DNA of 51,401 bases from Candidatus Binatia bacterium (GCA_040877705.1 JBBDNJ010000332.1:1-51401), one strand, 5' to 3'; positions 1,779 through 25,826 are shown, numbered from the stretch's first letter. The notes: generated from the letters alone by a model not told the origin. Made by a program: numbers and translations.

Positions 1779-2812
1779 AAGGCCATTTTCTTTCCGCCCT
1801 CGCGGTAAAGAAGAAACAGGAAAAACGGTCCGCCGAAGAAGGCTGTGATGATACCCACCGGCAGCTCCGCTGGGGCGAGTAGAATGCGAGCCAGCGTGTC
1901 TGCCCAGCATAAGAAAATCCCACCGGCGAGAAAGGAAGCCGGCAGCAAAAGCCGGTGATCGCTGCCGACGAGCAGTCGCATGACGTGGGGAATCATCAGT
2001 CCGATGAAGCCGATCATGCCGCTTACCGAAACCATGGCGCCGATCATCAACGAGGAAGCGATAAAAACCTGCCGTTGGAGGGCTCCGGTTTCGACGCCCA
2101 ATTGCATGGCTGCCTCTTCTCCCAGAGTGATTAAATTCAATGAAAGGCCTTTTGCCCATAGCCAGAAAAAACCGATAAGGATGTAACCCCAGATGAAAGC
2201 GACTGTGACGTAAGCCCGGCTCGACAAGCTGCCCATGAGCCAGAAGAGCAGCCCCTGCGCCTGATAAAAATCGACGATGGAATTCAGAAACATGATCACC
2301 GCGGCGATGAAAGAATTGAAAATCACGCCGGAGAGCAGCAGATGATAGGGATGAAGCCGCCCGTGAAACAATGAAAATCGATAGACCAACATCATGCTCA
2401 AGAGCGCGCCGGCAAACGCCGCCAGCGGCACCCAGGAGATTTCACCGAAAAGCCCGCCGGCGACGGGCACCAGCCAGTAGGGAAAAAAGATCAGTCCCAA
2501 GATGCCGCCTAAAGAAGCGCCCCCAGACACTCCTAGCATCTGCGGGCAGGCAAGCGGATTGCCGAGTAAAGCCTGAAGCACGACGCCGCAGGTTGCCATG
2601 CCGCCGCCGATGGCGATGCCCAGGAGTACGCGGGGTAGGCGCGTGCGGAACAAAATCTCCGCGTTCGGGTCCGCTGAAAAGATATTCTCGAGGGCCCGCG
2701 AAAGATCGATGGGAACCGGCCCCAGCAAAGAGCAGACGATCATGGAAACGATTAGAAAAAGGCACAGGACTCCATTAACCTGGATCATCTTTTTACGATT
2801 AAGGACTTTCAC
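1775..2812 (-). CDS. btuC: FecCD-family ABC permease (BtuC-like)
   Basis: 345 aa, polytopic and hydrophobic, with FecCD-like motifs (RLPRVLLGIAIGGGMATCGVVLQALLGNPLA...; ELPVGIITAFFGGPFFLFLL). Confidence 0.9.
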   Translation of the reverse strand: MKVLNRKKMIQVNGVLCLFLIVSMIVCSLLGPVPIDLSRALENIFSADPNAEILFRTRLPRVLLGIAIGGGMATCGVVLQALLGNPLACPQMLGVSGGASLGGILGLIFFPYWLVPVAGGLFGEISWVPLAAFAGALLSMMLVYRFSLFHGRLHPYHLLLSGVIFNSFIAAVIMFLNSIVDFYQAQGLLFWLMGSLSSRAYVTVAFIWGYILIGFFWLWAKGLSLNLITLGEEAAMQLGVETGALQRQVFIASSLMIGAMVSVSGMIGFIGLMIPHVMRLLVGSDHRLLLPASFLAGGIFLCWADTLARILLAPAELPVGIITAFFGGPFFLFLLYREGGKKMAL

Positions 2813-3713
2813 AGCGACTCTCCACGTTGCGTTTGCCGCTCAAAAAATTCGCGAAACACTCCGGATGAATGAGACGGGCCAATTCCGCTATAGCCTCGCC
2901 GAACCGGGGACCCGGCCGTAAAATTTTGTCGGATCGATAGTAATAGATGCGCCGCTCTTTCACCGCGGGAATGGACTTGAGATCTTCCCAGCGCTTGCCG
3001 GATTGTTCCCGCTCCGATCCCATGCCGGCTTCGATAATGACTTGAGGCGCCTTGGCCACCACGTACTCCGTGGGCAAATTGAGCCAAGGTTGAGCAGCGT
3101 TGCCGGCGATGTTTTTGCCTCCCGCGAGAGTAATCATCTCGTCGATAAAATTCTTTCCACCCACTGCAACTAAGGGACGAATGCCGACCACCAACAGCAC
3201 CGGGCGACGCGGCGCCGCCGCAATTCCGTGCTTTACATCTTGAACCTGAGCGCCGATCTTAGTTACCAGCCTTTCCCCTGCTTCTGGGCTTCCCAACAAG
3301 CGGGCGATGGACTTGATCGAATTCAAGATGTCGTTGAGGCTCGCCACCGAAATCAAAGTCACTTTGAGACCGAGGCGTTCCAGCTCCCTCGCCTTCACCG
3401 GATCGGTGGCGCCGTTGACGCCGATAACGAGGTCCGGCCGTTTGGCGATAATCGCTTCAAGACTGGGACTCAGAAAGTCGCCGATCTTGGGAAGCCTCCG
3501 CGCTTCGGCAGGGTAGTCGCAATAGGTCGTAACGCCGACCAAGCGATCACCGAAACCGAGAGCAAATAGGGTCTCGGTTACGCTAGGCGCAAGGGAAACG
3601 ATTCTTTGCGGCCGCGGTGCGGGAGGTCCCTGAGCGAAGGCAGCGGGCCTGCACAAGAGGATCAGGGTTGCAATAAATAAATAAACCGTAATTATCCGCC
3701 GTGAAGAATTCAT
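2799..3713 (-). CDS. btuF: periplasmic cobalamin/siderophore-binding protein (BtuF-like) with signal peptide
   Basis: Start MNSSRRIITVYLFIATLILLCRPAAFAQ (signal peptide), then RIVSLAPSVTETLFALG...TTYCDYP, typical of BtuF. ATG at 3713 overlaps the cobS stop (ATGA). Confidence 0.8.
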   Translation of the reverse strand: MNSSRRIITVYLFIATLILLCRPAAFAQGPPAPRPQRIVSLAPSVTETLFALGFGDRLVGVTTYCDYPAEARRLPKIGDFLSPSLEAIIAKRPDLVIGVNGATDPVKARELERLGLKVTLISVASLNDILNSIKSIARLLGSPEAGERLVTKIGAQVQDVKHGIAAAPRRPVLLVVGIRPLVAVGGKNFIDEMITLAGGKNIAGNAAQPWLNLPTEYVVAKAPQVIIEAGMGSEREQSGKRWEDLKSIPAVKERRIYYYRSDKILRPGPRFGEAIAELARLIHPECFANFLSGKRNVESRCESP

Positions 3714-4441
3714 CGCGCTCCCAGAGTCAAGAAAACCAGCACCGAGGCCTCGCTCAATTCTCCAACAGCGCCGAAAGTATCGCCGGTCACGCCATCCAAG
3801 CGGCGGTGAAAATATTTCTTGCTCGCCAGGCTGAAGACGGCGATCCAGATCATCAAAGCGATGCCGCGGCCGTGCAATATCCCTGCAACCAAAAGTAGTG
3901 TGATGAACGTGGCGAAAACAACATGCTTGGTTTCCATGTGATCGATTAAATTCGAACCCAGTCCTGGCTTTGCCGCTTTGGACCGATAGCCGAGCAGCAC
4001 CATCGCCCAACGGCCGAGGATTGGGGCGGCCAGCAATGCACGCCAGCGGTCGCTGTCGATGCTCTCGATGGCGTGAATTTTAAAAAACAGCAACAAGACA
4101 ATCGCGATCAGACCAAAAGCGCCGGTGTGGCTGTCATCCATGACGCGGAGAATGCGCTCGCGATCGCCGCCGGCGCCCAAGCCGTCGAATGTATCGCCAA
4201 GGCCGTCCAGGTGCAGGCCGCGCGTCAGCAGGGCCAGGATGGTCACGAGCACCACGCTCGACAATCCTGCGGTCGCCAACGGTTCCAACACGCCGTTCAC
4301 CAGCACTAGGATCAATCCTAGTAAAAAGCCGATGACCGGAAAGAAAATCGCAGACCGTCCCACTTCATCAGCCGAATATTCCGCGCGCTTGGGCCAGGGA
4401 AAAAGCGTCAAGAACTGGAGCGCCGCGAAAAAAGAGCTCAC
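3710..4441 (-). CDS. cobS: adenosylcobinamide-GDP ribazoletransferase (cobalamin synthase)
   Basis: FLTLFP..., LHLDGLGDTFDGLG, MDDSHTGAFG and LDGVTGDTFGA motifs. GTG start overlaps the cobT stop. Confidence 0.9.
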   Translation of the reverse strand: MSSFFAALQFLTLFPWPKRAEYSADEVGRSAIFFPVIGFLLGLILVLVNGVLEPLATAGLSSVVLVTILALLTRGLHLDGLGDTFDGLGAGGDRERILRVMDDSHTGAFGLIAIVLLLFFKIHAIESIDSDRWRALLAAPILGRWAMVLLGYRSKAAKPGLGSNLIDHMETKHVVFATFITLLLVAGILHGRGIALMIWIAVFSLASKKYFHRRLDGVTGDTFGAVGELSEASVLVFLTLGAR

Positions 4442-5493
4442 GGAAGTTTCTCTTTCACGCCTGCCGATTCAAAAGTCGCCATCTCGCCCATTATTCTTGC
4501 CGCCGCTTCGATCAAGCCCATGAGCAGACAGGCACCGGTTCCCTCGCCAAGCCGCATCTGCAAATCCAAAACAGGCGCGAGCTTGAGCTCATCGAGCATC
4601 AAGCCATGGCCTCTTTCGGTGGAAAGGTGCGAGGCGAAGAGAACATCTCGCACATGAGGACAAAGTCTTTGGGCGAGCAGCGCAGCAACACCGGATATGA
4701 AGCCGTCGAGCACCATCGGCAAGCGAAACTCCGCCGCGCCTAAAATCACCCCCGTCATGGCGCCGATTTCCAAGCCGCCAACTTTGCTAAGAACGTCGAC
4801 GGGCTCACCGGCGTCGGGCCGGTTGAGAGCGAGACCTTTTTCGATGGCCGCGATTTTTCTTCTCAGCGCCGCGTCGTCGATGCCCGTGCCCCGGCCGACA
4901 GCGGCGTCGGGCGCGGCGCCTGTCAAAGCGCAGAGAATGGCCGCCGCGCTGCTGGTGTTGCCTATGCCCATGTCGCCGGCGGCGAGAAGAAAGACGTTTT
5001 CAGCAGCGGCTTCTCGGGCGAGCTGAATACCCAACTCCACGGAGCGCATGGCCTCATCACGCGTCATCGCCGGTCCGCGGGCGAAATTTGCCGTGCCGCG
5101 ACGCACCTTGCAGTTGCGCAAACCGCGCGGGGCGGCGAATTCGTGGTCGACGCCGACATCGACGACTTCGGTATCGACGCCGTGATGGCGCGCTAAAACG
5201 TTGATGGCGGCGCCGCCGCGCAGGAAATTGTAAGTCATCTGCGCCGTGACGTCTTTGGGGTATGCGCTCACGTCTTCCTCGGTAATCCCGTGGTCCGCCG
5301 CAAAGACAAACAGAAGCTTGCGCCCGAGCCGCGGCGGGACTTTTCCCTGGATGACGGCGATGCGGCGCGCCATCTCTTCCAATTTTCCCAGGCTTCCATG
5401 CGGCTTGGTCAGGGAATCGAGGCGCTTCTGCGCTTCAACCTCGACGGCGCGATTCAGAGGGCGGATCTTTTCAAGCGTCTCGTCTAGCGGCAT
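4438..5493 (-). CDS. cobT: nicotinate-nucleotide--dimethylbenzimidazole phosphoribosyltransferase
   Basis: LDSLTKPHGSLGKLEE..., AADHGI, MGIGNTSSAAA and GEGTGA motifs. Internal ATG at 5493 (MPLDETLEKIRPLN...); the tracked upstream extension is Arg/Gly-rich junk that overlaps cobU. Confidence 0.9.
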   Translation of the reverse strand: MPLDETLEKIRPLNRAVEVEAQKRLDSLTKPHGSLGKLEEMARRIAVIQGKVPPRLGRKLLFVFAADHGITEEDVSAYPKDVTAQMTYNFLRGGAAINVLARHHGVDTEVVDVGVDHEFAAPRGLRNCKVRRGTANFARGPAMTRDEAMRSVELGIQLAREAAAENVFLLAAGDMGIGNTSSAAAILCALTGAAPDAAVGRGTGIDDAALRRKIAAIEKGLALNRPDAGEPVDVLSKVGGLEIGAMTGVILGAAEFRLPMVLDGFISGVAALLAQRLCPHVRDVLFASHLSTERGHGLMLDELKLAPVLDLQMRLGEGTGACLLMGLIEAAARIMGEMATFESAGVKEKLP

Positions 5494-9503: not shown

Positions 9504-10877
9504 TTATTTAGGACCGCGACAGGCGGCGACGAAACTTCGGGCAAACTCGGGATTCGATCCGAAATGCAAATGCACGTAACTGCCGAGGCACTTCTTATAG
9601 CGATAGCCCTCGCGTAGTTTTGTTTTACCCGGCCCTTCAATTAAATAAGCGGTTTCAATCGCCTTTGTGCCTTGGGAGCGGTATATCTCGGAATAGTGAA
9701 ACTCGTGGCCTCTGATCTTTGCTCCCTGTGCAACAAATGTTTTCTTTGCGGCCACGACTTCACGATAACCCAGGGCTTTTAACCGCGGCAGCATTCTCGT
9801 CTGAAATGGATAGACGCCGACCATCGGATATTGCCGCTTCCCGCAATCCGTCAACGCCTCGGTGAGATACATGAGGCCGCCGCACTCCGCGTAGACGGGA
9901 CCCCCTGTTTCGATGAAATCTTTGATCGCCGCGCGCATCGGCCGGTTGCGCGAGAGTTCCTTGGCGTAAAGCTCCGGATAACCGCCACCCAAGTAAATGC
10001 CTTTCACTCCCTCAGGAAGGCCGCGATCACGGATCGGACTGAAGTTTTTGATTTTCGCACCAGCGCTTCTCAGAAGCTCCAGGTTATCCGGATAATAAAA
10101 ACAAAACGCTCGATCGTTTGCGACCGCAATCGGCACGTCGTCATCCGGCAGTTTTTTCAGCGGAGCTTCGGCTGGCGCGGCAATTTTGGTTCGCGCGCTC
10201 GCAAGTAAACGATTCAACTCGACATGCGTTTCGATCAGCCGGGCAAGGCGCTCGACGAAGCGCTGGTTGAGCAAACCTTCCTTGGCGACGGTCAAGCCGA
10301 GATGGCGCTCCGGGATCGTTACGCGATCGTCAATCGGGATGCCGCCGAAACACTTGAGACCCGGCAATGATCGGAGAGCCTCTTTGAGATATTGGAGATG
10401 GCCTTGTCCAGCAACGCGGTTGAAGATGACTCCAATTAGACGAATTTTCGGATCGAATCGGCAATAACCCAGAATCATGGCGGCCGCGCTGCGGGCCATC
10501 GCCGCGGCGTCAACGACCAGAATTACCGGCAGGCCGAGCTGCTTTGCCATTTCCGCCGTGCTCCCTTCTTCGGTCGCACCGCTCCGGCCGTCGTAGAGTC
10601 CCATCATACCCTCGACGACGGCGACGTCTTTGTTTTGCACGTTTTTCTGAAAGGAGCGGCGATTGTAGTCTCCGGTCAACATCCAACTGTCAAGGTTGTA
10701 TGACGGCACCCGGCAAATTTTCGCGTGCAACCCGGGATCAATAAAATCCGGCCCGATCTTGAACGGCTGCACTTTCATACCGCGGTGCTGCAATGCCGCC
10801 ATGATACCGAGGGAGACGGTGGTCTTGCCGACACCGCTATGGGTGCCGGCGATGACGAATGTAGGTATAGATCGCAT
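9504..10877 (-). CDS. cbiA: cobyrinic acid a,c-diamide synthase
   Basis: N-terminal AGTHSGVGKTTVSLG, KIGPDFIDP, and a C-terminal glutamine amidotransferase part (ECGGLMYL, HEFHYS). Confidence 0.9.
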   Translation of the reverse strand: MRSIPTFVIAGTHSGVGKTTVSLGIMAALQHRGMKVQPFKIGPDFIDPGLHAKICRVPSYNLDSWMLTGDYNRRSFQKNVQNKDVAVVEGMMGLYDGRSGATEEGSTAEMAKQLGLPVILVVDAAAMARSAAAMILGYCRFDPKIRLIGVIFNRVAGQGHLQYLKEALRSLPGLKCFGGIPIDDRVTIPERHLGLTVAKEGLLNQRFVERLARLIETHVELNRLLASARTKIAAPAEAPLKKLPDDDVPIAVANDRAFCFYYPDNLELLRSAGAKIKNFSPIRDRGLPEGVKGIYLGGGYPELYAKELSRNRPMRAAIKDFIETGGPVYAECGGLMYLTEALTDCGKRQYPMVGVYPFQTRMLPRLKALGYREVVAAKKTFVAQGAKIRGHEFHYSEIYRSQGTKAIETAYLIEGPGKTKLREGYRYKKCLGSYVHLHFGSNPEFARSFVAACRGPK

Positions 10878-10905
10878 GACGGTTGTTGTCTCTGATCGAG
10901 CCTTT

Positions 10906-12471
10906 CTATTGTCCCGGCGGAGCGACGAGCCAACTCTTGATGAGATTCATGTCCAATGATTTCCTGAGATGGCACGCCAGGCGATCGATACGCGCTTCGC
11001 GTTCAGCGCCGACATGCGTCCACTTGTCCGCTGGAGAGAGATCGACTGCTTTGCGTGCGTCTTTAATAAATGAATGCCGGAAATCATCGTTGTCGAAAAA
11101 GCCATGCACGTAGGTGCCGAACACGCGGCCTGATTCACTGATGGCGCCGTCCTCAAACGATCCCTCCAGTCCCTGTCGCGCGATGTCGGCTAGAGGGAGT
11201 GCTCTGTTTTCATACAAAGTTTCACCCACATGGATCTCGTAACCGTCAAAATGAGTTTCCGGACAGAGATCCCGGCCGAAAAGACCGGAGCGGAGGCAAC
11301 CTTGAACGCGCCGCACGGTTTTTTCCGCAGCGAGTATGGTTCGCACCGGCAGAAGACCCAGTCCTGTTCGGCTCGCTCGCTTGCCTTGATTCTCGATGCC
11401 TTCGGGATCTTCAAGGGAAATGCCAAGCATCTGAAAGCCGCCGCAGATGCCGAGGATAGGAACGCCGCTTCCGCAGAGCCGGCGAAGCTCACCGGCAAAA
11501 CCTCGATGCTCGAGCCACTGCAGATCGTCGAGCGTCTGCTTGCTGCCGGGCAAGATGAGTAAATCGGCCGCGGCCATTTCTTCGGGTCTCTCCAAATAAA
11601 CTAACGACACCGCGGGCTCCGGAGCCAACGGGTCGAAGTCGGTAAAATTGGCCATGTGCGGCAAAGCGATGACGCCAACTCGTAACGGTCGCGACGTTTC
11701 CGTTTCCAGCTGTTTCCACTGACGCGCCGCTGAAGGACGATCTTCCAAAGCCACGCCATCTTCTTCGTCGAGGCCGAGATCCCGAAGATAGGGCACGACG
11801 CCAGCGCACGGCAAACCAAGGCGGCGCTCGATCATCGCGACGCCTGGACGCAACAGCGATTCGTCGCCGCGAAACTTATTGATGACGAAGCCGTGAATGC
11901 GCGCACGATCTTCAGGTTCAAGCAGCTCGAGGGTGCCCAACAGCGCGGCGAAAACTCCGCCGCGGTCGATGTCACCGACCAGCAGGCAGGCGGCATCGGC
12001 CGCGTGCGCCATGCGCATGTTGACGATGTCGTGTTCCCTGAGATTGATCTCAGCCGGCGAGCCGGCGCCTTCGAGCAGCATGACATCATGACGCGCCGAC
12101 AGACGTTTATACGCGTCCAGCACCTCTGGGAAAAGCTGCTCGACTCGCTTAGTATGATAGTCGGACGCGGTGACTTGGCCCCAAATCTTTCCCAATAAGA
12201 CTACCTGTGCGCCGGTGTCCGTGCATGGTTTGAGCAGAACAGGATTCATTTCGACGCATGCTGGGACGCGGCAGGCTTCGGCTTGCAGCGCCTGGGCACG
12301 GCCGATCTCGCCGCCGTCCGGCGTCGCCGCGGAATTAAGCGACATATTCTGCGCCTTGAAAGGCGCGACGCGATAACCATCGTCGGCGAAGATGCGCCCT
12401 AAGCCCGCCGTGAGAATCGATTTCCCCACGTGCGAAGCCGTCCCCAAAATCATCAACGCACTTTTTCTCAT
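10906..12471 (-). CDS. cobQ: cobyric acid synthase
   Basis: GTASHVGKS..., FKAQNMSLNS, IGRAQALQAEA, and a C-terminal GATase (ICGGFQMLG, YEIHVG). Confidence 0.9.
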   Translation of the reverse strand: MRKSALMILGTASHVGKSILTAGLGRIFADDGYRVAPFKAQNMSLNSAATPDGGEIGRAQALQAEACRVPACVEMNPVLLKPCTDTGAQVVLLGKIWGQVTASDYHTKRVEQLFPEVLDAYKRLSARHDVMLLEGAGSPAEINLREHDIVNMRMAHAADAACLLVGDIDRGGVFAALLGTLELLEPEDRARIHGFVINKFRGDESLLRPGVAMIERRLGLPCAGVVPYLRDLGLDEEDGVALEDRPSAARQWKQLETETSRPLRVGVIALPHMANFTDFDPLAPEPAVSLVYLERPEEMAAADLLILPGSKQTLDDLQWLEHRGFAGELRRLCGSGVPILGICGGFQMLGISLEDPEGIENQGKRASRTGLGLLPVRTILAAEKTVRRVQGCLRSGLFGRDLCPETHFDGYEIHVGETLYENRALPLADIARQGLEGSFEDGAISESGRVFGTYVHGFFDNDDFRHSFIKDARKAVDLSPADKWTHVGAEREARIDRLACHLRKSLDMNLIKSWLVAPPGQ

Positions 12472-12498
12472 CAGGTCTTCCAGTTCGGCATCGATGCG

Positions 12499-13074
12499 TT
12501 ACCACGCCCTGGACCACCGCGGACCCGCAGTGTCAGGGGTGCGAAGTGAAGAATCGATGCCATGGCGCGTCTCCAGCAATCGACCCAAGAGCCACAACAA
12601 ATCAGACAGACGGTTCAGATACGCCAGAATCGCGGGGTTGATGATCTGACCTTCATCCATGAGGCCTGCGGTTAGTCGTTCAGCGCGGCGGCATACGGTG
12701 CGCGCGACATCGAGGGCCGCGGCATCCGGAAGCTCCCCAGGCAACGACCAATCGGCGAGAACTCCAGGCAGGCTCTCGATCCGGTGTACTTCCGCCTCTA
12801 AGGCATCCACCATGTCTGACGTGATTTCTGGACCCGGCTTCCTGCTATGGGGTGGTGTCCCGATGGCAGACCCTACCTTATAGAGCTCACGTTGCAGGGT
12901 TTTGATTTGCTCCCGTACTTCCGCGTCCGTGCAAACGGAGCGGGCGAAGCCCATTTGCGAAATCAACTCGTCGATAGTGCCGTAACACTCGACGCGTGGA
13001 TGAGTTTTAGAGACGCGGAGTCCTCCAGGCAGGCTTGTCTTACCATTATCACCGCGTTTTGTACTTATACTCAT
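12499..13074 (-). CDS. pduO: ATP:cob(I)alamin adenosyltransferase, PduO type
   Basis: TKRGDNGKTSL...VECYGTIDEL... is the canonical PduO-type N-terminus; 191 aa. Confidence 0.85.
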   Translation of the reverse strand: MSISTKRGDNGKTSLPGGLRVSKTHPRVECYGTIDELISQMGFARSVCTDAEVREQIKTLQRELYKVGSAIGTPPHSRKPGPEITSDMVDALEAEVHRIESLPGVLADWSLPGELPDAAALDVARTVCRRAERLTAGLMDEGQIINPAILAYLNRLSDLLWLLGRLLETRHGIDSSLRTPDTAGPRWSRAW

Positions 13075-16386: not shown

Positions 16387-16419
16387 ATAAATCTCCTTTT
16401 CCCGCGAAAGGGGAGTTGT

Positions 16420-16600
16420 TGGGGCAGAACGGATCGGTCTCCTGGCTTGAGCTTCAAACCTACTTGCCGCGCCTTCCCATCCTTGGACACGGTTCAGGAC
16501 AGTGGCTAGTGCGTGCGGCGTTCGTAGCTCTTACAGTTGCGGGGCAGCAGAGGATTTTTCACCTCTTTCCCGTAATCCGACTGCGGTTAATCGATTATTT
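16420..16600 (-). promoter_or_regulatory. cobalamin riboswitch (upstream of btuB)
   Basis: Minus strand reads ...GGGAAAGAGGTGAAAAATCCTCTGCTGCCCCGCAACTGTAAG...GCCACTGTCC...GGGAAGGCG...AAGCCAGGAGACC. B12 box is at 16436-16448 and GCCACTG at about 16499-16505. Boundaries approximate. Confidence 0.85.
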
Positions 16601-16621
16601 TTATTGCCCTCCTTAAGCCGA

Positions 16622-17449: not shown

Positions 17450-17524
17450 CCGCTCTGCTCCCAAGCTACATGAGAATTAGGAATCGACGACACTGGAAAC
17501 CTTTCTCTCTCCTCCGGAGAGGTC

Positions 17525-17730
17525 GGTCTATGGCTCTAAGGAGGTCTCCTGGCTTACGAGTAGGGAGGCTTTCCTCCTGCCTTTCACCGCCTTCCCATCG
17601 GCCTGAGGCTGACAGTGGCTGACTAGTGAAAGATCTTACCCGATCACAGTGGCGGGACCGCGCCGGATTTGCACCGGTCTTCCCTTTGACCTTAGAGCAC
17701 CGAAGAGCACCGAGCTGATGTCGCGGAACG
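17525..17730 (-). promoter_or_regulatory. cobalamin riboswitch (upstream of tonB)
   Basis: Minus strand reads AAGGGAAGACCGGTGCAAATCCGGCGCGGTCCCGCCACTGTGA...GCCACTGTCAG...GGGAAGGCGGTGAAAGG...AAGCCAGGAGACC. B12 box at 17543-17555. Boundaries approximate. Confidence 0.85.
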
Positions 17731-17940: not shown

Positions 17941-18201
17941 ATGAAAAAGCAAAAGGCAAGTATCGAACGAGTCGAGCGACAATCGGCCGCATTTGTTGCC
18001 GAGCAGGTTGCGAAACTGAAAGAGTCTTTCCCGGAAGCTGTTATAGAGGGCAAGGTCGATTACGAGAAGCTGCGCGCGACCTTGGGCGATGAAGTCGACG
18101 ACCGGCCGGAGCGATACTCGTTTAATTGGGCCGGAAAACGCGACGCGATCCGGCTTCTTCAGACCCCTAGCCGAGCGACGTTGGTTCCAGCAGCATCATA
18201 G
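17941..18201 (+). pseudogene. N-terminal fragment of a type III-like DNA methyltransferase (Mod)
   Basis: 86 aa. ...LKESFPEAVIEGKVDYEKLRATLGDEVDDRPERYSFNWAGKRDAIRLLQTPSRATLVP resembles Mod N-termini. It stops before any catalytic DPPY / AdoMet motif. Confidence 0.6.
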
Positions 18202-18249: not shown

Positions 18250-18546
18250 ATGAGCCGCATTGCTATTGATCAAGAAGAGATCGCCGGGTTTTGCCGGAAG
18301 CACCATATCAGCAAGCTCGCCTTCTTTGGCTCGGTCCTTCGAGATGATTTTCGCCCCGACAGCGATGTGGATGTACTCGTTGAGTTTGAACCGGGGCACG
18401 TGCCTGGATTGACATTCTTCGCTATGGAAGCGGAGCTTTCAGAAATCTTGGGCCGCAAGGTGGATCTGAATACCCCAAACTTCCTGAGTCGTTACTTTCG
18501 CGATCAAGTCGTGGCCGAGGCCGAGGTTCAATATGTCTCGCCGTGA
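18250..18546 (+). CDS. mntA: MNT-type nucleotidyltransferase (antitoxin of HepT/MNT systems)
   Basis: [21 protein letters not shown] is the GS-x-D-x-D minimal nucleotidyltransferase motif; 98 aa. Confidence 0.8.
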
Positions 18547-18625
18547 CACGACCGTTCCTCTGCGGCACATGCTGGATCATGCCAAAGAGGCGGTCAGCAT
18601 GGCTCGGGATAAAACTCAGGCTTAG
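18533..18625 (+). pseudogene. truncated HepT (DUF86) toxin remnant
   Basis: ATG at 18533 overlaps the MNT 3' end as in HepT/MNT operons. It encodes only [30 protein letters not shown] then TAG at 18623-18625, against more than 110 aa for intact HepT. The R-x4-HxY region is absent. Confidence 0.55.
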
Positions 18626-18716: not shown

Positions 18717-19499
18717 TCAAAGTACCAGGCAACCAGCCGCAAGCCCGGTGTAAGGATCGCGGAGAAACAGGATGACAGGAAGGTCGGCTCTGTACTTCAA
18801 TGATCGGATTTGGGAATTGAATCCTTTGCCAAGAGAGTTGGTTACCATACCTGCAAGAATCTTAATAACTGGGTCGTAGTAGAGTGAAATATCAATTGCT
18901 ATAGCAGCCTGCCGCGTTTTTCCCAATTGTTTAGCCTTTGATCTAAAAGCTCGGCGTAATCTTAGCGCAGGTTTGTCATCAAGGAGAAATGATTCAAATC
19001 GAGAGTTTAAGAATTCGCCGTCATTACCATGAATGATCGCTTTTACTTCAATTCGGTACTGTGTATCACCTTGCGTTACAACTATATCAAATCGCCGCTT
19101 TCCTAGATTTGGCTCAGATGTGATTCCCTGAGAAGTAAAGTAATCTAGCAAAATAAGTTCGCTCCACAGTCCTTCAAAATCATCCTGTCTTTTCCAAAAG
19201 AACCGCTTATTGACATCATGGTCGAATGTTAAATTTTTGTATTGGTTCCGTAGCATTTGATAGATTTTGTTGACACCTTGACCAAAATTAGCGGGCAAGA
19301 TCTTAGAGGTAACGAAGCCCTGCCAAAACAACCGAGTGAACAGGTAAGACACTTTATCGTCCTTTCGATTCTTAACCGCATCAGCTTGTTCTTTGAGCCA
19401 GTCCCGGCCTAGGAAATCTTGTTGCAACCCCACAGTAGATATCAGATAGTTCTGATAATCATGTATATGCTCAACTATCCTATTTAACTCTTCTGCCAT
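18717..19499 (-). CDS. PD-(D/E)xK nuclease-like protein, second gene of the candidate defence operon
   Basis: 260 aa. E114 (LWSELILL), D138 (RRFDIVV) and E151-V-K153 (YRIEVKA, nt 19041-19049) have the spacing of a restriction-endonuclease-like core. 11-nt gap to the upstream gene with AGGAAG before the ATG. Confidence 0.6.
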   Translation of the reverse strand: MAEELNRIVEHIHDYQNYLISTVGLQQDFLGRDWLKEQADAVKNRKDDKVSYLFTRLFWQGFVTSKILPANFGQGVNKIYQMLRNQYKNLTFDHDVNKRFFWKRQDDFEGLWSELILLDYFTSQGITSEPNLGKRRFDIVVTQGDTQYRIEVKAIIHGNDGEFLNSRFESFLLDDKPALRLRRAFRSKAKQLGKTRQAAIAIDISLYYDPVIKILAGMVTNSLGKGFNSQIRSLKYRADLPVILFLRDPYTGLAAGCLVL

Positions 19500-19510
19500 T
19501 GTGTCGCTTC

Positions 19511-21598
19511 CTAACGTTTAGAATTCACTAGATTTATCAGTGCGTCTAAATCAACGAGTTGAATCGGCTTATCTTGCACGAAGGAGTACGCTTGAGAAGT
19601 GAACGCGCCCGTCGTAATTATGTAGCCAGATTGTGCTCCCGCGCCCATAAGTGAACCGTAAAACTCTCGAATTACAGGTTCTCCGATTGAAGCATTCCAA
19701 CGTTTGCATTGAACAACAACAAGCTGATGATCTTTACGCATCAACAAGTCTATTCCGTGATCCCCACTTATCGGCGTGATCTCAACCGAGTAGCCCATCT
19801 CGCGAAAGGCCCGTGCAACAAACTCTTCGAAGTCTAAGCGGCTCATGGCGCAGAGCTTGTTAGCGAGGTCTAACGACGTTGCTGATGTAGCGAGGTAGCC
19901 AAATGAAACGAGTGCTTCTCTTGTAAGATTAAGGCTTACGCGTTCTGTCTCATTGGTACGAGTATATTCCAGCAACCTCTTCATCAGAACTCTGGCGTTC
20001 CCCGGAGATCCTTCGCAGTACTTGGCCAGCAAGTCGGCAGCCTCGGGTTCAACAGAGATGTTTTCCTGTTTCGCTATTAACTGCAGCATTTGTCCAATCT
20101 CATGCACGCTGTATGGCGCGAAATCATACACAATCATCCAGCGGCGTAGCCGTTTGTTTACTTGTGAGGGCCTGGATGTTGTACCAATTAGGGTGAAATA
20201 TTTCAGTTCTACATTCGGACCGACGTTGCGGACACTTGAACCCTCTCCCATCGTAATGGCAACGGAAGGATTCTCAAGCACTTGGACCAAAGCCTCGACG
20301 ATCGGTTCTTTGAGCAGGTCGATTCGCTCAACAATAGACAAACCGCCCGCTTGCAATGATATCAGCAAGTCTTCGAGATCTTCAGGCCTGTCGAGTGAAG
20401 CTGCATCGCTGGATTGAATGCTTGTTTGCATTTCATTCGCGATGGCGCCCGCTAAGGTGGCTTTTCCGATCTCGCGTGGTCCGCAGAGTAGCAGGTGAGG
20501 CAAGCGCTGCGAGTTTCGTCTAGCCGTGTCGATCCGTGCCCTTAGATCTTTCTTAATTGCTTCTTGGCCCACATAGTCAAGAAGACATCCAAGGACAGGT
20601 TTGGCGTCAGTAAAGTTATAGACGGCCATCAACCTGCGAAGGCTCCTGTCCACGCGTGCGGAATTTCTGGTTGTTCCAATTAAAGTGAACAGTTTAACGG
20701 GAAGTTGTATGCTCCGCGCAGCAGGTCCCTGTCCAATCATGATATCGATCTGAAAATCTGCAAGCGCAGAAAGCAGACCCTGCAAAACCACTTTATTCAT
20801 CAACTCGATCTGCTCAATGAGGATTATGTGTCCCTCGTCAAGATTAGTAAGTAAGGCCGCTAAATCGCCAGACCCCTCTATAACGGCAGCGCTGGTATAC
20901 CGGATGTTAACTCCCATCTCCCTAGAGATCTCGCGTGCCAACGAAGCTGTCCCAGGTTCGAATGAACCGCAAAGCAGCAGATGAGGCAGTGGCTCGTTTT
21001 TACCCTTTGCTGCCGCGATCAGTCTCTGCAGATCCTGTATAGGATGTTTCAGCTCTGCGTATGTTAGCAGCGCTGAAAAAGTGGACAATTCACGAATGAA
21101 GTTCTCAAGTTCTCTTTCAAGGTCCGTAAGGACTTCCGACCCGCTAACCTGATTCTTGTAGGTTCTCACTTCCGCGAGCGCCGCAGAAATTAGGACAAAC
21201 TTTTCTTTGTAATTGCTAGCGAAACCAGCTTTGGACCGTGCCTCCTTCGCTTTTGACTTTAGTGATTCTAAAATCAAGTTATCTTTCTTCTTTTGATCCT
21301 CAAACCCATTCTTCTTCGCGCTGTATTCGAGCAATAGTGCACTGGGCAACGGCTTACCGGTTGGAATCTCATTTTTTTCGTATTTGAGTAGCGCCTCTGC
21401 CACCTTAATGATCGCGTGACATGCTGAAATTTTATTATTGAGACTCGTATTAGCTTCGAGATTCTTCTTCGACTCGTCAACTGTTTGAGTTCGCTCCGCG
21501 ATGTCCTTTGATATCACGGGATCACATTCGCGGCAGAGACCCTGGATCGAAACCCGCAGAAACCATCCAGCGCGTCCGCAAGTTTTACATGTGGCCAT
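19511..21598 (-). CDS. multidomain protein: CxxC-x14-CxxC zinc ribbon, helical region, two degenerate RuvB-like AAA+ modules, C-terminal Mrr-type restriction endonuclease domain
   Basis: 695 aa. C4/C7/C22/C25 zinc ribbon. aa 185-330 and 345-547 each align to the RuvB core (GVNIRYTSAAVIEGSGDLAALLTNL...DFQIDIMIGQGPAARSIQLPVKLFTLIGTTR versus RuvB [25 protein letters not shown]...[32 protein letters not shown]). aa 586-690 are Mrr_cat-like (FEEFVARAFREMGY...GDHGIDLL...VVVQCKR). Confidence 0.8.
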   Translation of the reverse strand: MATCKTCGRAGWFLRVSIQGLCRECDPVISKDIAERTQTVDESKKNLEANTSLNNKISACHAIIKVAEALLKYEKNEIPTGKPLPSALLLEYSAKKNGFEDQKKKDNLILESLKSKAKEARSKAGFASNYKEKFVLISAALAEVRTYKNQVSGSEVLTDLERELENFIRELSTFSALLTYAELKHPIQDLQRLIAAAKGKNEPLPHLLLCGSFEPGTASLAREISREMGVNIRYTSAAVIEGSGDLAALLTNLDEGHIILIEQIELMNKVVLQGLLSALADFQIDIMIGQGPAARSIQLPVKLFTLIGTTRNSARVDRSLRRLMAVYNFTDAKPVLGCLLDYVGQEAIKKDLRARIDTARRNSQRLPHLLLCGPREIGKATLAGAIANEMQTSIQSSDAASLDRPEDLEDLLISLQAGGLSIVERIDLLKEPIVEALVQVLENPSVAITMGEGSSVRNVGPNVELKYFTLIGTTSRPSQVNKRLRRWMIVYDFAPYSVHEIGQMLQLIAKQENISVEPEAADLLAKYCEGSPGNARVLMKRLLEYTRTNETERVSLNLTREALVSFGYLATSATSLDLANKLCAMSRLDFEEFVARAFREMGYSVEITPISGDHGIDLLMRKDHQLVVVQCKRWNASIGEPVIREFYGSLMGAGAQSGYIITTGAFTSQAYSFVQDKPIQLVDLDALINLVNSKR

Positions 21599-21657
21599 AT
21601 TTTAAAAAAAATTTCGGCAAAGACTGCAGAAATGACGCCGACCCTGCACTAAAAGCG

Positions 21658-21699
21658 TTATGATTCTGCCTTATTATGATTCTCTTGAAATAACGTCAA
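21658..21699 (-). promoter_or_regulatory. candidate promoter/operator region of the defence-like operon
   Basis: Minus strand TTGACG (21694-21699), then CATAAT/TAATAA 15-17 nt downstream. A 10-bp direct repeat TTATGATTCT lies at 21658-21667 and 21674-21683 (plus-strand reading), 60-85 nt upstream of the ATG. Confidence 0.3.
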
Positions 21700-21760
21700 G
21701 AGAAATTGAAAACGAACTAGGATCGGATTGTCTCCACGTTTGGCCATCGCTCTCCGGAAT

Positions 21761-21788
21761 TTTCAACGCCCTGACAATAATTCGTTGA
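21761..21788 (+). repeat. copy A of a 20-nt motif TTTCAACGCCCTGACAATAA with hairpin (TCAACG/CGTTGA)
   Basis: Motif at 21761-21780; stem arms at 21763-21768 and 21783-21788. Confidence 0.6.
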
Positions 21789-22337
21789 GACATAACACCC
21801 AACGTGTAACCCTGACCGTCAGGCCGCGTAGAGAACCCATCCGATCTCCCCGGTCCGTAACCTTTGAGACTATCCGACGCTACCGGAATAAATCCGCAAA
21901 GACGTCCGTATGCCCCGGCGAAGAACGAAACCGACGGTGGTGTCAAAGATCCCGGAGCGCTTTACGCAGGGGACGAGAGGGACTTGCAAATTGTGCAGTC
22001 TGGAGAAGCTGATATGATTTTTTATTCTTCTAATACTGGAATGGCTCCGCTCTCCGATTTGAATATAAGCTTGAACCGAGCGGATTTGGAAAAGGGAACT
22101 GCAAAACGAGCTTGATGAAAAGTTTGCCGACGCGCTTTTAAGTCAGACCGAGAATATTTCAGAGCAAGAATCGCAAGCAACGATGGAACGTGCTTGGTGA
22201 GTGCCTCGATCTTACAAGCCCCGAGAGATCCGATGACCGATAATTTCGATTAGGACAAAGATCTCATGTTCGTTGGAGACAGAAGAACTCTCCACCGTAA
22301 CGCGGTGAGATTAGCGCGTGAATAACTTCCATCTCGT

Positions 22338-22545
22338 TCACATGATCAGCCAAAAAACCAGCGGGATCTTAAAAATGGAAATAAAAGTATTGAGCACGAC
22401 GATGGACGCGGCCAGGCCGGGATCTTGGCGGTAGTTTCCGGTCAGGATGAAATTGATGACCGCAGTCGGCAGCGCGCCGTAGAGAAGCAGCACCTGACGG
22501 TTGACGTCTTCGGCGCCGATCAAGTTCACGGCGAGCCTAGGGGCA
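22338..22545 (-). pseudogene. 3' fragment of an AEC-family (auxin efflux carrier-like) transporter gene
   Basis: ...NLIGAEDVNRQVLLLYGALPTAVINFILTGNYRQDPGLAASIVVLNTFISIFKIPLVFWLIM parallels the last ~70 aa of the intact gene at 24951-25826. About the first 220 codons are missing. Confidence 0.65.
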
Positions 22546-22720
22546 AACCTTTCCTCTACCTGGTTCGCGAGGCAAAGGAGCTTCTGCAACTAAAAAAACT
22601 TCGCCCCAACGAAACCTGAAAGACTATATGCGGCCAAAAGCATTTCAAAGATGCCCCTAGACGTTGACTCAAGATCGTTAGTACTATCGATGAAATACGA
22701 TAGCGGACGAATTTTTTTGT

Positions 22721-22741
22721 TCGGAATTATCAGTTTAACAA
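22721..22741 (+). repeat. left terminal inverted repeat
   Basis: TCGGAATTATCAGTTTAACAA; perfect 21/21 match to the reverse complement of 23656-23676. Confidence 0.85.
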
Positions 22742-22762
22742 AGCAGTACCCCGTGGTATAGG
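22735..22762 (+). promoter_or_regulatory. candidate promoter partly inside the left inverted repeat, implying a leaderless mRNA
   Basis: TTAACA (22735-22740), 16-nt spacer ending in TGG (extended -10 TGn), TATAGG (22757-22762). The ATG at 22769 is 7 nt after the -10 and has no Shine-Dalgarno sequence. Confidence 0.3.
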
Positions 22763-22768
22763 CGCGGC

Positions 22769-23587
22769 ATGGAACAATATCGTAAAGCTTTCATCTATCG
22801 GTTTTGGCAGGAAACAAAACCTTGGTTTACGCCGAAGTCGAAATTGTGGGTTACGATCTCCTTGGCTGTTATTGGCTTTGGCCTCCGTTGGTTTTCGGCT
22901 GGGAGGAGCGAGGCCATAAGTTGGTTTTGGTTTGTCATTGCACCCGTCCTCGTCCTTTTAGTCATGGTATGTTTAATCAATCTTTTTCGCACTTCATCTC
23001 TTTTGCATAAAAAGGCGGAGGACGATCATTCAAAAGAGATCGCTCAAGCAAAAGAAGAGATCTACCGTCTACAAAACGCGGTTGATGAGTTGCAAGCCCT
23101 TATTGCCCCAAAACTCGACATTTTATTCGAAGATCAGCCCAAATACGTCATTGTCGATATGAATCCATTGAATGGGATTTCTCACAGAACTTTTAGAATA
23201 GGCGTAAAAAACCGCAGCATGATTAGCATAGACGCCACGCTTCAATTAACGGAAATATCACCCGATCATGAAAGATTTCACAGTTTGGAGATGGAAGATA
23301 TGACATTCAGTCATCTAAGGCTCCCAAAAGAGTTTTGCAGCTTTAATCTTGCGCCTCAAGACGAAAGGCTAATAGAGATCGTATCAAAACGGGACGGGCA
23401 AGATTACTCAACCAAGATCCGATTACATCTTCCAGCGCCAGACGTTATGGCTCAGGGTTCCTATGTATTTAAGCTCTGCGCGACTGGGTCTAACACGCCA
23501 CCATGCGTGAAACACTTTCAAGTTTCTATAGATAATGGGCACCTTAAATTTGAACTGATCAGATCAAGGCCATCCGTAGTGCGTTGA
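22769..23587 (+). CDS. membrane-anchored protein of unknown function (two N-terminal TM helices, coiled coil, beta-rich C-terminal domain)
   Basis: 272 aa. TM segments LWVTISLAVIGFGLRWF and FWFVIAPVLVLLVMVCLINLF, then EIAQAKEEIYRLQNAVDELQALI. No DDE, HUH or recombinase motifs seen. Confidence 0.7.
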   Translation: MEQYRKAFIYRFWQETKPWFTPKSKLWVTISLAVIGFGLRWFSAGRSEAISWFWFVIAPVLVLLVMVCLINLFRTSSLLHKKAEDDHSKEIAQAKEEIYRLQNAVDELQALIAPKLDILFEDQPKYVIVDMNPLNGISHRTFRIGVKNRSMISIDATLQLTEISPDHERFHSLEMEDMTFSHLRLPKEFCSFNLAPQDERLIEIVSKRDGQDYSTKIRLHLPAPDVMAQGSYVFKLCATGSNTPPCVKHFQVSIDNGHLKFELIRSRPSVVR

Positions 23588-23608
23588 GCGCTGCTTTCCC
23601 GGGGAAAC

Positions 23609-23638
23609 TTTCAACACCCTGACAATTAGGGTGGTTGA
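23609..23638 (+). repeat. copy B of the 20-nt motif (TTTCAACACCCTGACAATTA) with hairpin
   Basis: Motif at 23609-23628. TCAACACCCT / AGGGT-G-GTTGA forms a 10-bp stem with a one-base bulge (23611-23638). Confidence 0.6.
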
Positions 23639-23655
23639 TTGGGATTTTATCATCC

Positions 23656-23676
23656 TTGTTAAACTGATAATTCCGA
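23656..23676 (-). repeat. right terminal inverted repeat
   Basis: TTGTTAAACTGATAATTCCGA; reverse complement identical to 22721-22741. Confidence 0.85.
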
Positions 23677-23754
23677 TTTTGTTTCTTCCAATTCCCAAAA
23701 CCTTTCGAGGCTAAGTCTTTACTTTTTAGCTAAATTCGTTTTTTAACCAAAAAT

Positions 23755-23787
23755 TTTCAACGCGACGACAATAAACAGTGTGTCGCG
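23755..23787 (+). repeat. copy C of the 20-nt motif (TTTCAACGCGACGACAATAA) with hairpin (CGCGAC/GTCGCG)
   Basis: Motif at 23755-23774; stem arms at 23761-23766 and 23782-23787. About 75 nt upstream of the ATG at 23850. Confidence 0.6.
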
Positions 23788-23849
23788 ATAAACTACCGAG
23801 CGGTGTGCCCTTAGCTTACCCGTCGAACAGCGAAAGGAGGTTGTTTGGC

Positions 23850-24158
23850 ATGAAATACTCTTTACCTATTTTGAAGTTGTACTTATCAAAGTTCGGTGAT
23901 CAAGACAGCCGGGAGGACGGCAATGCGATTCTCTCCAAAGCTAACACGGTCCCTCTTAACCCGCAAAAATTTAGCAAAAAAGCAGCCCAAGAGGGTGTAC
24001 CTTGGGCTACGTGGCTCGGACTTAAACAGTTGAGTGGGTTTGCCGAAGGAAGCGAGCGGAGATCCGTATTCGTTTATTATCGGCTGCTGCAAGGCGTCAT
24101 CGAAACCTATGTGCTTGTTCGGCCAATCGAAACTCTGGACGCTGTTATAAGCTGCTAA
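23850..24158 (+). CDS. hypothetical protein
   Basis: ATG at 23850 is preceded by GAAAGGAGG (strong RBS). 102 aa, MKYSLPILKLYLSKFGDQDS...; no recognisable family. Confidence 0.45.
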   Translation: MKYSLPILKLYLSKFGDQDSREDGNAILSKANTVPLNPQKFSKKAAQEGVPWATWLGLKQLSGFAEGSERRSVFVYYRLLQGVIETYVLVRPIETLDAVISC

Positions 24159-24547
24159 AGAATCTCACAGATAACGGCACGGGAACGGACACTGCACTCT
24201 CAAATATAAGGCCACTGGCTTTATGGGATGGTCCGAACCAGACTGCCTATCGGCTTTTTCCTCTCCCAGCGCAAACAAAGAAACGGCGCGGCACTGTTAT
24301 TCATGTTGATCACTGCAACCAAGTGGCGTTTTTTTCCTCTTATGTTGATTCGATCTGGCCGCGGATCTGGAAAAATAATTTGCTGGAATACACGGACTAC
24401 GAACTTCTACCGCAGGAGAGAGAAGCCCCTGCTGCTCTGAAAGATAAGAGAATCATTTACCGGAATGTGTTTGTCATGTTGGAAACAGGCTGAGCGCGGA
24501 TCCATAATTTGTGGGTTTCTGTCGTAAACACTTTGGAGGAGAACGAA

Positions 24548-24895: not shown

Positions 24896-24950
24896 GAAGA
24901 GGCCCCTGCCGTTGATTTAGAAGTCATATCGTGAGGAACTTGTGCCTTGG

Positions 24951-25826
24951 TCACAAAATCAACCAGAACACGAAGGGAATAGTCAGCACTGAGATAAAAG
25001 TACTCAAGACCACAATTGAGGCGGCGAGTTCTGGATCTTGGCGATATTTCTCCGTGAGGACGAAATTAATCACCGCGGCGGGGAGCGCGCCGTAGAGAAG
25101 CAAGACCTGGCGATTGACGCCTTCGGCGCCGATCAGATTCACCACAATCGATGCGACCAAAAATCCGCCAAAAATTCGCACCAGGGCGCCGCCGACGGCA
25201 TGGCGCCATTGGAACGACTGAAAATCATGGAGCCGGTAGCCGAGGCTGACGAGCATGATTGGAATGGTCGACTGGCCGAGCATGGAAATGGGCTGGAAGA
25301 GCAACTCCGGAATGCTAATCCGATTTAAACTGAACGTCAGACCGGCAAGGGTTGCATAGATCAACGGCAGGCGAAAACTTTCGGCCCAGTTTCCTCGCCC
25401 GTTCAACAGGTAAAGGCCAAGCGAATACTGGAGAAAGGTAATCATCACAAACATCAAGGTTGCGCGTTGTAAGCCGGCTTCGCCGAAAGCAAACAGCGCC
25501 AATGGGATTCCCATGTTTCCGGCGTTCATGAATAACGCAGGGAGCGCAAACCCGCGCGAACTGAAGCGAAACGCGGAGAAGTAGATTCGGACCAGCAAAC
25601 CAACCCCGGCGAAGATCAACAGCACGCCGCTTAACAAGACCGCGATATCCGCGGCGGACAGGGGCTTTCTCGCGAGGGAAGTAAACACCAGCGACGGAGT
25701 TCCCAAGTAGACGATCAGTTCCGTCACTGGCACGAGACTGATCTTTTTCCAACGGGCAAAGACAAATCCGGTGGCAATGAGTAAAAAAACCGGAACGACG
25801 GGAGAAAGTGGTTCGAATAGTTCCAT
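24951..25826 (-). CDS. AEC-family (auxin efflux carrier-like) membrane transporter
   Basis: 291 aa, polytopic. The C-terminal ...LLLYGALPAAVINFVLTEKYRQDPELAASIVVLSTFISVLTIPFVFWLIL is typical of the membrane transport protein (Mem_trans) family. Confidence 0.85.
   Translation of the reverse strand: MELFEPLSPVVPVFLLIATGFVFARWKKISLVPVTELIVYLGTPSLVFTSLARKPLSAADIAVLLSGVLLIFAGVGLLVRIYFSAFRFSSRGFALPALFMNAGNMGIPLALFAFGEAGLQRATLMFVMITFLQYSLGLYLLNGRGNWAESFRLPLIYATLAGLTFSLNRISIPELLFQPISMLGQSTIPIMLVSLGYRLHDFQSFQWRHAVGGALVRIFGGFLVASIVVNLIGAEGVNRQVLLLYGALPAAVINFVLTEKYRQDPELAASIVVLSTFISVLTIPFVFWLIL

Follow-up and report, generated by a model that had tools for sequence, protein, structure and literature searches.

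In McrBC, an oligomeric P-loop NTPase is coupled to a restriction-fold nuclease that cuts double-stranded DNA. In DUF4297-HerA, the assembly itself activates the nuclease (PMC11291478), and STAND/Avs proteins carry a nucleotide-dependent oligomerisation switch fused to swappable effectors, Mrr_cat among them (Rousset 2022, PMC9122126). The branch-migration motor RuvB binds DNA through its C-terminal head domain (Arg291, Arg310, Arg312 and Arg315), is targeted to junctions by RuvA domain III docked on its presensor-1 hairpin and helix α3, and has a trans-acting ED pair (PMC9477746). We analyzed a stretch of 51,401 nucleotides from a Candidatus Binatia bacterium (GCA_040877705.1, JBBDNJ010000332.1:1-51401), the whole of which is called the window below, and in particular a cassette of two genes on its minus strand: gene 1 (19511-21598), an open reading frame (ORF) of 695 residues, and gene 2 (18717-19499), an ORF of 260 residues, both with an ATG start. 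Gene 1 belongs to a rare and previously undescribed family, of which it is an internally expanded form specific to one lineage; in this family a RuvB-derived AAA+ domain is joined to an Mrr-type nuclease. The recurring unit of this family is a single gene with one RuvB-like module, a lid and an Mrr domain. From its sequence, gene 1 probably encodes a DNA-cutting defence or mobile-element protein.

The product of gene 1, whose parts are all encoded on the minus strand, opens with a CxxC…CxxC zinc ribbon (residues 1-27, 21518-21598; C4, C7, C22 and C25). This is followed by a helical region (residues 28-183, 21050-21517), a candidate sensor or regulatory part, and the AlphaFold2 (AF2) model places helices at residues 25-49, 53-75, 85-126, 130-150 and 155-199 with predicted local distance difference test (pLDDT) values mostly of 70-86. 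Then come AAA+ module 1 (residues 184-338, 20585-21049), a RuvB-type large subdomain without a lid and apparently a pseudo-ATPase, the large subdomain of AAA+ module 2 (residues 339-495, 20114-20584), a RuvB-type lid or small ATPase subdomain (residues 496-575, 19874-20113) and an Mrr-type PD-(D/E)xK nuclease domain (residues 576-695, 19514-19873). An earlier note on this DNA had proposed this order of a zinc ribbon, a helical region, two RuvB-like modules and Mrr, and Pfam, NCBIfam, the PDB search and Foldseek agreed on it. Pfam matched RuvB_N in two stretches (E=1.1e-63), AAA_lid_4 at residues 496-565 and Mrr_cat at residues 584-690 (E=4.9e-33; 114 bits against a gathering cut-off of 21). 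The top Foldseek matches of the AF2 model were all RuvB (E=1e-14), and only RuvB appeared at the top of a sequence search against the PDB. The best NCBIfam matches were two RuvB equivalog models, both under their cut-offs even with the scores summed over the two modules (NF000868, 263.1 bits against 282; TIGR00635, 255.4 against 299). PF05491, the RuvB_C head domain, was absent from gene 1 and from all of its fusion relatives, and Mrr_cat comes after the lid, where RuvB has its DNA-binding head domain. The catalytic residues of the Mrr core are intact, namely G612-DHGIDLL (D613, D617) and VVVQCKR (Q630, K632), and the previously given numbering of D613, D617 and K632 was confirmed in the translated gene. 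The Pfam model NA-iREase1 (NACHT-associated) also matches this domain; no NACHT or NB-ARC match was found by Pfam in gene 1, the NTPase of which corresponds to RuvB_N/AAA.

Gene 1 resembles RuvB (NF000868/TIGR00635; PDB 8efv, 7pbl and 1in5) in its large ATPase subdomain and lid, in the conserved sensor-1 Thr and Arg finger and, in module 1, in the presensor-1 hairpin. It differs in that the head domain is swapped for a nuclease, a zinc ribbon and a helical region are added and the gene is sporadic and island-borne; besides, the family is devoid of the Walker B DE, the sensor-2 Arg and, mostly, the Walker A Thr. With the Mrr/Type IV restriction endonucleases, gene 1 shares an Mrr_cat domain with an intact D…D…QxK and is solitary, with no cognate methyltransferase, but where classical Mrr has an N-terminal part for DNA recognition, gene 1 has a RuvB-derived AAA+ domain. 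The coupling of an NTPase to a nuclease follows the same logic as in McrBC and DUF4297-HerA. Yet those systems use a McrB-type AAA+ GTPase or a HerA/FtsK ATPase with a separate nuclease subunit, whereas gene 1 is of the RuvB type, fused and degenerate in its motifs, and the PADLOC models of McrB, McrC and HerA did not match it. The nuclease of the family is swappable as in STAND/Avs proteins (Mrr_cat, or HNH in the relative P0015), although gene 1 has a RuvB-lineage AAA+ domain, no C-terminal repeat sensor and its nuclease at the C-terminus. ZorD, the SNF2 helicase of Zorya, likewise combines an ATPase of a DNA-motor family with a C-terminal Mrr-like nuclease; however, gene 1 matches it at the nuclease end only, has no SNF2 domain and has no ZorA, ZorB or ZorC among its neighbours. 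Since the defining NTPase core differs each time, gene 1 belongs to none of the McrBC/HerA-nuclease, STAND/Avs and ZorD groups. The PADLOC matches of gene 1 covered the Mrr domain only (PDC-S02 and mREase_IV at about residues 577-692, ZorD at 550-694), apart from marginal P-loop matches with E values of 0.004 or worse. The earlier note had not recognised the combination as any named defence family, and this held: no PADLOC model covered either whole protein or the pair, and no description of a RuvB-like–Mrr fusion was found in full-text literature searches.

A search of 5.8 billion proteins with gene 1 returned one close full-length relative, P0002, with 86% identity on contig L001, and about ten clusters of shorter relatives of 385-451 residues, which consist of one RuvB-like module, the lid and Mrr_cat and share 39-52% identity with the C-terminal half of gene 1. 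The family comprises about 11 protein clusters. A pattern scan with one genome per species located the lid-plus-Mrr arrangement in 7 of 185,579 species genomes; as the patterns were short, this number is a minimum. All seven proteins have a single module, and they come from a 'delta proteobacterium' metagenome-assembled genome (MAG), Binatia, Anaerolineales, Saccharibacteria, an unclassified bacterium, Gemmatales and Pirellulales. The family is rare and sporadic across unrelated phyla. Searches of 50,697 phage genomes, 72,556 plasmids and the IMG/VR viral contigs gave RuvB-only or Mrr-only matches and no full-length relative. The N-terminal parts vary among members. The zinc ribbon also opens P0004, P0009, P0010 and the L014 protein, and lies upstream in L001 in another frame; because of this recurrence the ATG at 21598 was judged a better start for gene 1 than the later one chosen by the gene caller, which gives 668 residues. 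A search with residues 1-183 of gene 1 returned no homologues, not even P0002, and was taken as uninformative rather than as a sign of absence. The relative in L020, of 631 residues, has a long extension at its N-terminus and another kind of zinc ribbon. P0015 (L058, 502-1701) has several zinc ribbons and a RuvB-like module, and an HNH domain takes the place of Mrr. In L057 (814-2748) the RuvB-like part (P0013) and the Mrr part are separate, adjoining ORFs beside an integrase. Such a nuclease swap and such a split gene pair are typical of modular conflict systems.

Module 2 of gene 1 aligns with the single module of the other members, to which it is orthologous in this alignment; module 1, which has no lid, is an additional large subdomain. 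Module 1 shares 38% identity with module 2 and 36-47% with the single-module proteins, which indicates that it arose inside the family and not from a housekeeping ruvB. The second AAA+ module was seen only in the window protein and in its 86%-identical P0002/L001 variant. A duplicated RuvB-like scaffold, which the earlier note had placed at the center of the system, is thus a feature of one lineage only, all other members carrying one module.

All the modules of the family were aligned with four genuine RuvBs to survey their motifs. The family Walker A reads GPxExGK followed by A, V, K or R, rarely by S or T. Of all the modules, only module 1 of the window protein lacks the P-loop Lys, which is still present in module 1 of P0002. 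Module 1 has GSFEPGTAS as Walker A, with the Lys lost, and IEQ as Walker B; module 2 has GPREIGKAT and VER, and keeps the sensor-1 T473 and the Arg finger R486. No member has the Walker B DE, which is replaced by EE, EQ, EH, TN, KD, SE or ED. Many single-module members retain the trans-acting ED pair, which in the window protein has become AD (module 1) and EN (module 2). The family retains the sensor-1 Thr, and most members the Arg finger (lost in P0011, P0015, L019 and L020); the sensor-2 Arg position is occupied by Gly, Glu or Ser (in gene 1, the Gly of GSPGNAR). The Mrr core, GDHGIDL…VQCKRW (D…D…QxK), varies only in P0009 and P0010, in which the catalytic residues are partly degraded (SDSGTG…VQCQR). 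Given these motifs and the loss of the head domain, a branch-migration-type motor is an unlikely function for the AAA+ part of the family.

The presensor-1 hairpin of module 1, QIDIMIGQGPAARSIQLPV, is identical to that of RuvB at 14 of 19 positions, versus 44% identity for the rest of the domain. The same hairpin is identical at 11-13 of 19 positions (58-68%) in P0003, P0005 and P0006, at 7 of 19 in module 2 and at only 4-6 of 19 in P0004, P0007, P0009 and P0010. Helix α3, the other half of the interface with RuvA domain III, matches RuvB at 6 of 16 positions in module 1. It is conceivable, though improbable, that the hairpin docks host RuvA and in this way brings Mrr to RuvA-bound Holliday junctions or reversed forks. 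If this were true, an immune or conflict nuclease would read the recombination and replication intermediates of an invader by hijacking the junction sensor that the host uses for housekeeping. Duplication in the window lineage would then have divided the tasks, with module 1 as the adaptor to RuvA and module 2 as the nuclease-bearing nucleotide switch.

The two genes of the cassette had been described as tightly coupled, and the ORFs and the sequence are as claimed. Read directly from the sequence, the coupling region (19500-19516, minus strand) holds the end of gene 1 (…AAA CGT TAG, with the TAG stop at 19513-19511) and a Shine-Dalgarno sequence, AGGAAG, which overlaps the stop and is placed 7 nucleotides ahead of the gene 2 ATG, leaving an 11 nucleotide gap between the two genes. 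The L001 contig carries the same arrangement: its positions 1272-4870 match window positions 21824-18250 with 87% DNA identity in BLASTn, and gene 1 is succeeded by gene 2 (77% identity) and then by the same MNT gene, so that L001 is a strain-level variant of the same locus. The ratio of nonsynonymous to synonymous substitution rates (dN/dS) between the window and L001 was 0.31 for gene 1 and 0.22 for gene 2. By region, gene 1 gave 0.20 for the N-terminal helices, 0.58 for module 1, 0.20 for module 2, 0.19 for Mrr and 1.16 for the lid, the last value coming from only 80 codons with few changes. Both genes are therefore under purifying selection, which is relaxed in module 1. Because of the translational coupling and these ratios, the association of gene 1 and gene 2 looks real within the window lineage. 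Outside it the pair was not found. No gene 2 relative was detected near the single-module loci in tBLASTn searches with all members of the gene 2 family (up to 10 kb on each side), and no gene 1 relative occurred in the loci of gene 2 relatives. The genes around the latter code for a β-helix protein, a PDDEXK_3 protein, a NYN protein and an fn3 protein, besides unannotated ORFs; they have no relation to each other, and no conserved partner was seen among them. The pair thus occurs only in the window and L001. The earlier note had named a lack of co-conservation as a ground for refutation, and an obligate two-gene system is not supported.

The relatives of gene 2 form a small family of their own. 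A word-indexed search gave P0069, at 35% identity, and the family grew to 8 clusters when 1.84 billion representatives were searched exhaustively in HMMER with a profile built from two sequences; none of its relatives was found in viral contigs. The protein (18717-19499, minus strand) has a helical N-terminal half and a putative PD-(D/E)xK core with E114, D138 and E151-x-K153. Its predicted secondary structure follows the order α-βββ-α-β (helix 105-123, strands 127-130, 139-143 and 146-155, helix 175-191, strand 199-205), with E114 falling within the helix, D138 where β2 begins and E151-x-K153 in β3, as would fit such a core. In an alignment of nine family members E114 and D138 are invariant, and these two residues together with D203, R247 and the DFEGxWSEL motif are all invariant or nearly so; E151 is replaced by V or Q in two of the nine sequences and K153 by S or A in another two. 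Profile and structural searches gave no significant match. Pfam returned the SfsA RE domain (E=0.027) and NOV_C (0.063) below threshold, each in only 2 of 9 members, and phrog_5018 (0.005) was a similar sub-threshold match in PHROGs, which together with NCBIfam gave nothing usable. No PADLOC model was common to more than one of the nine members (best E value, 0.006). Against the PDB, the best nuclease match of the family profile was the Holliday-junction resolvase Hje, whose catalytic motifs were aligned but whose E value of 0.45 is not significant. The AF2 model (pLDDT 46.7) is too poor for a structural assignment, and its best Foldseek match was not significant (E=0.31), the weak matches including HindIII, I-Ssp6803I, Hjc, PspGI and Card1. 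No relationship with the Mrr alignment was found by hhalign (probability 0.14%). The sub-threshold matches lean toward nucleases and, of the nuclease previously proposed here, the E…D…ExK order fits the predicted core. A nuclease fold for gene 2 would seem to have a roughly even chance, or slightly better, and the protein is probably an accessory nuclease-fold protein acting as a second effector or as a regulator.

The genomic contexts of the family contain mobile-element, toxin or Abi markers in 7 of 10 distinct cases. The window and L001 share an island with a methyltransferase stub and an MNT/HepT remnant. In the Binatia loci L007-L009 the gene is accompanied by a tyrosine integrase, an HI1420-type antitoxin partner and a SWIM protein; in L013 by a resolvase, ParE and a downstream TPR protein; in L017 and L018 by large serine recombinases, L018 having also a Cas4-like PDDEXK_1 protein; and in L057 by an integrase. 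P0007 is encoded directly after a HEPN_AbiU2-like gene. In L019, from a Gemmatales MAG, the fusion gene is part of a prophage (9512-12718), where a 139-residue ORF, a lambda-type portal gene and a head protease gene succeed it; none of the ORFs tested was recognised as a large terminase. A terminase-substitute role, prompted by this prophage, was set aside on account of the degenerate ATPase motifs and of the other loci, which are not phage loci. The context of L020 was uninformative. In L010-L012 and L014, from Binatia-like MAGs, the gene stands alone between prpD-like and acyl-CoA synthetase genes, in the same slot in at least two genomes, as a solitary insertion among metabolic genes.

On balance, we lean toward a role of the family in defence or in conflicts between genetic elements. 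In its most likely form, as far as sequence can tell, this would be a restriction-like or abortive defence, or an inter-element conflict function, exerted by a single-gene system. This is the best reading because of the seven contexts out of ten, the intact Mrr domain, the swapping of nucleases and the sporadic phyletic spread. A RuvB-derived AAA+ domain, made of the large subdomain and the lid, has lost the head domain of RuvB and has an Mrr-type nuclease in that position. The AAA+ part would not be a translocating motor; it could act as a nucleotide-binding oligomerisation switch that forms a ring or a partial ring and gathers the Mrr domains where the RuvB heads would line the DNA, thus licensing double-strand cleavage. 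The variable N-terminal parts (the zinc ribbon and the helical region) may set the trigger or the target. To this plan the window lineage would have added an ATP-blind second large subdomain (module 1), derived within the family, and the translationally coupled gene 2, taken from an unrelated orphan family. Several observations weigh against this picture. The defence association is qualitative rather than statistical and comes from about 10 distinct loci, and L010-L012 and L014 are devoid of any mobile or defence marker. Walker B variants EE and ED occur in some members and could still hydrolyse ATP, so that a switch rather than a motor may fail to describe the whole family. The fold of gene 2 is plausible but unproven. 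Finally, gene 1 of L001 is frameshifted just after the zinc ribbon, and the lineage may therefore be starting to decay, or else the zinc ribbon may be dispensable.

The main rival is that these genes serve the life cycle of the mobile elements carrying them, as a phage or integrative-element nuclease against host or competitor DNA, as an addiction module or as a packaging-related ATPase-nuclease. Recombinases or integrases adjoin most of the loci, and in the prophage L019, where the ORFs tested included no recognisable large terminase, the gene precedes a lambda-type portal by two ORFs. The mobile context itself does not separate defence from service to the element, since defence genes commonly ride such elements. 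We find this explanation unlikely all the same, as no full-length relative came from the phage, plasmid or IMG/VR collections, solitary copies sit among metabolic genes, the window island has no phage structural genes and a packaging motor is hard to square with the degenerate ATPase motifs. Another rival builds on the idea in the earlier note that a RuvB-derived sensor coupled to nucleases could monitor branched or recombining foreign DNA. The two proteins would form an obligate system, with the duplicated scaffold as the sensor of such DNA (Holliday-junction-like intermediates) and with Mrr and gene 2 as the nucleases directed to it; recruitment might come from RuvA by way of the conserved presensor-1 hairpin. 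The genes are indeed translationally coupled and under selection in two diverged copies, the hairpin of module 1 is close to that of RuvB and is kept in P0003, P0005 and P0006, and Hje, with aligned motifs, is the best nuclease in the PDB for the gene 2 profile. But gene 2 is co-conserved nowhere else, the duplication is confined to one lineage, the Hje match is not significant, helix α3 is poorly conserved and the hairpin is lost in module 2, P0004, P0007, P0009 and P0010. Moreover, junction targeting in RuvB comes from RuvA and its grip on DNA from the head domain. With the head replaced by Mrr and the ATPase motifs degenerate family-wide, the idea of a branched-DNA sensor loses its basis, and we regard the two-protein system as rather improbable.

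It is still less probable, and indeed quite doubtful, that the cassette is a functionless relic of a decaying island, the debris of a duplication and a fusion. Its neighbours are truncated (the methyltransferase stub, the HepT remnant and a frameshifted 212-residue ORF), module 1 has lost its P-loop Lys and evolves at a dN/dS of 0.58, and gene 1 of L001 is frameshifted. Both window ORFs are nonetheless intact with all their catalytic residues, and Mrr, module 2, the N-terminal region and gene 2 show dN/dS ratios of 0.19-0.22 across 14-23% protein divergence. A housekeeping RuvB paralogue for recombination or repair, with a built-in resolvase-like nuclease, is effectively excluded: although RuvB is the closest protein by sequence and by fold, gene 1 scores below both equivalog cut-offs, has neither the head domain nor intact ATPase motifs, and belongs to a family present in scattered phyla, in only seven of the species representatives scanned, in a low-GC island and in mobile contexts.

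If functional, this would be the first case found of a RuvB motor exapted into a nuclease-bearing conflict protein, with the ATPase apparently reduced to a switch and the DNA-binding head exchanged for a restriction nuclease or HNH. It would add a new ATPase lineage to the design that joins an oligomerising NTPase to a restriction-fold effector, as in McrBC, Avs and HerA-nuclease systems. With their single-module, double-module, split-gene and Mrr/HNH-swapped architectures, the members would be a ready-made set for studying how nucleases are licensed by AAA+ pseudo-enzymes. The exaptation and the pseudo-ATPase state seen throughout the family are unusual. The extreme rarity of the family limits its ecological weight, its value being mechanistic and evolutionary, and a conserved two-nuclease operon on a duplicated scaffold is not general beyond one lineage.

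The cassette lies in an AT-rich patch with decayed restriction-modification and toxin-antitoxin neighbours, as previously stated. Its GC content is 0.47 (0.42 in gene 2 alone) against 0.55-0.56 in the flanks. Downstream of gene 2, an 86-residue ORF (17941-18201) corresponds to the N-terminus of a truncated site-specific DNA methyltransferase and is 46-57% identical to annotated ones, and the ORF at 18250-18546 encodes an MNT-type nucleotidyltransferase. On the plus strand, a 30-codon HepT-like N-terminal remnant (18533-18625), terminated by a stop, overlaps the end of the MNT gene; its stop is about 90 nucleotides from the 3' end of gene 2, and the toxin half of the MNT-HepT pair may have been displaced by the cassette. 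No tRNA gene, as a possible attachment site, was found in the window. Two full-length cobalamin riboswitches on the minus strand (16415-16617 and 17522-17710; 87 and 85 bits) precede TonB-dependent receptor and TonB genes and mark where the low-GC island borders the core genome on its left.

Upstream of gene 1, a non-coding leader (21599-21824, minus strand) is common to the window and L001; a scan found no consensus promoter upstream of the gene. The leader holds one copy (21758-21780) of the 23 nucleotide repeat AATTTTCAACGCCCTGACAATAA, about 160 nucleotides upstream of gene 1 and beside a terminator-like hairpin. Two more copies are located at 23606-23628 and 23752-23774, the chance expectation being 0, and the outer copies flank a segment of about 2 kb (about 21825-23795) that is not in L001, which suggests a repeat-mediated insertion or deletion. 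A 212-residue orphan ORF is intact in L001 (534-1172) and broken over two frames in the window (23850-24490, plus strand). Since gene 1 is the frameshifted gene in L001, the island is decaying differently in the two strains. A 213 nucleotide direct repeat (22317-22529 and 24930-25142, 73% identity) copies the 3' end of a Mem_trans/AEC transporter gene (24951-25826, minus strand) as an 83-residue fragment ORF (22338-22589), apparently a scar left at that end of the gene by an integration or a rearrangement. An orphan ORF of 272 residues (22769-23587; no Pfam match) is enclosed by a perfect 21 nucleotide inverted repeat (22721-22741 and 23656-23676) and may be a small mobile or invertible cassette.

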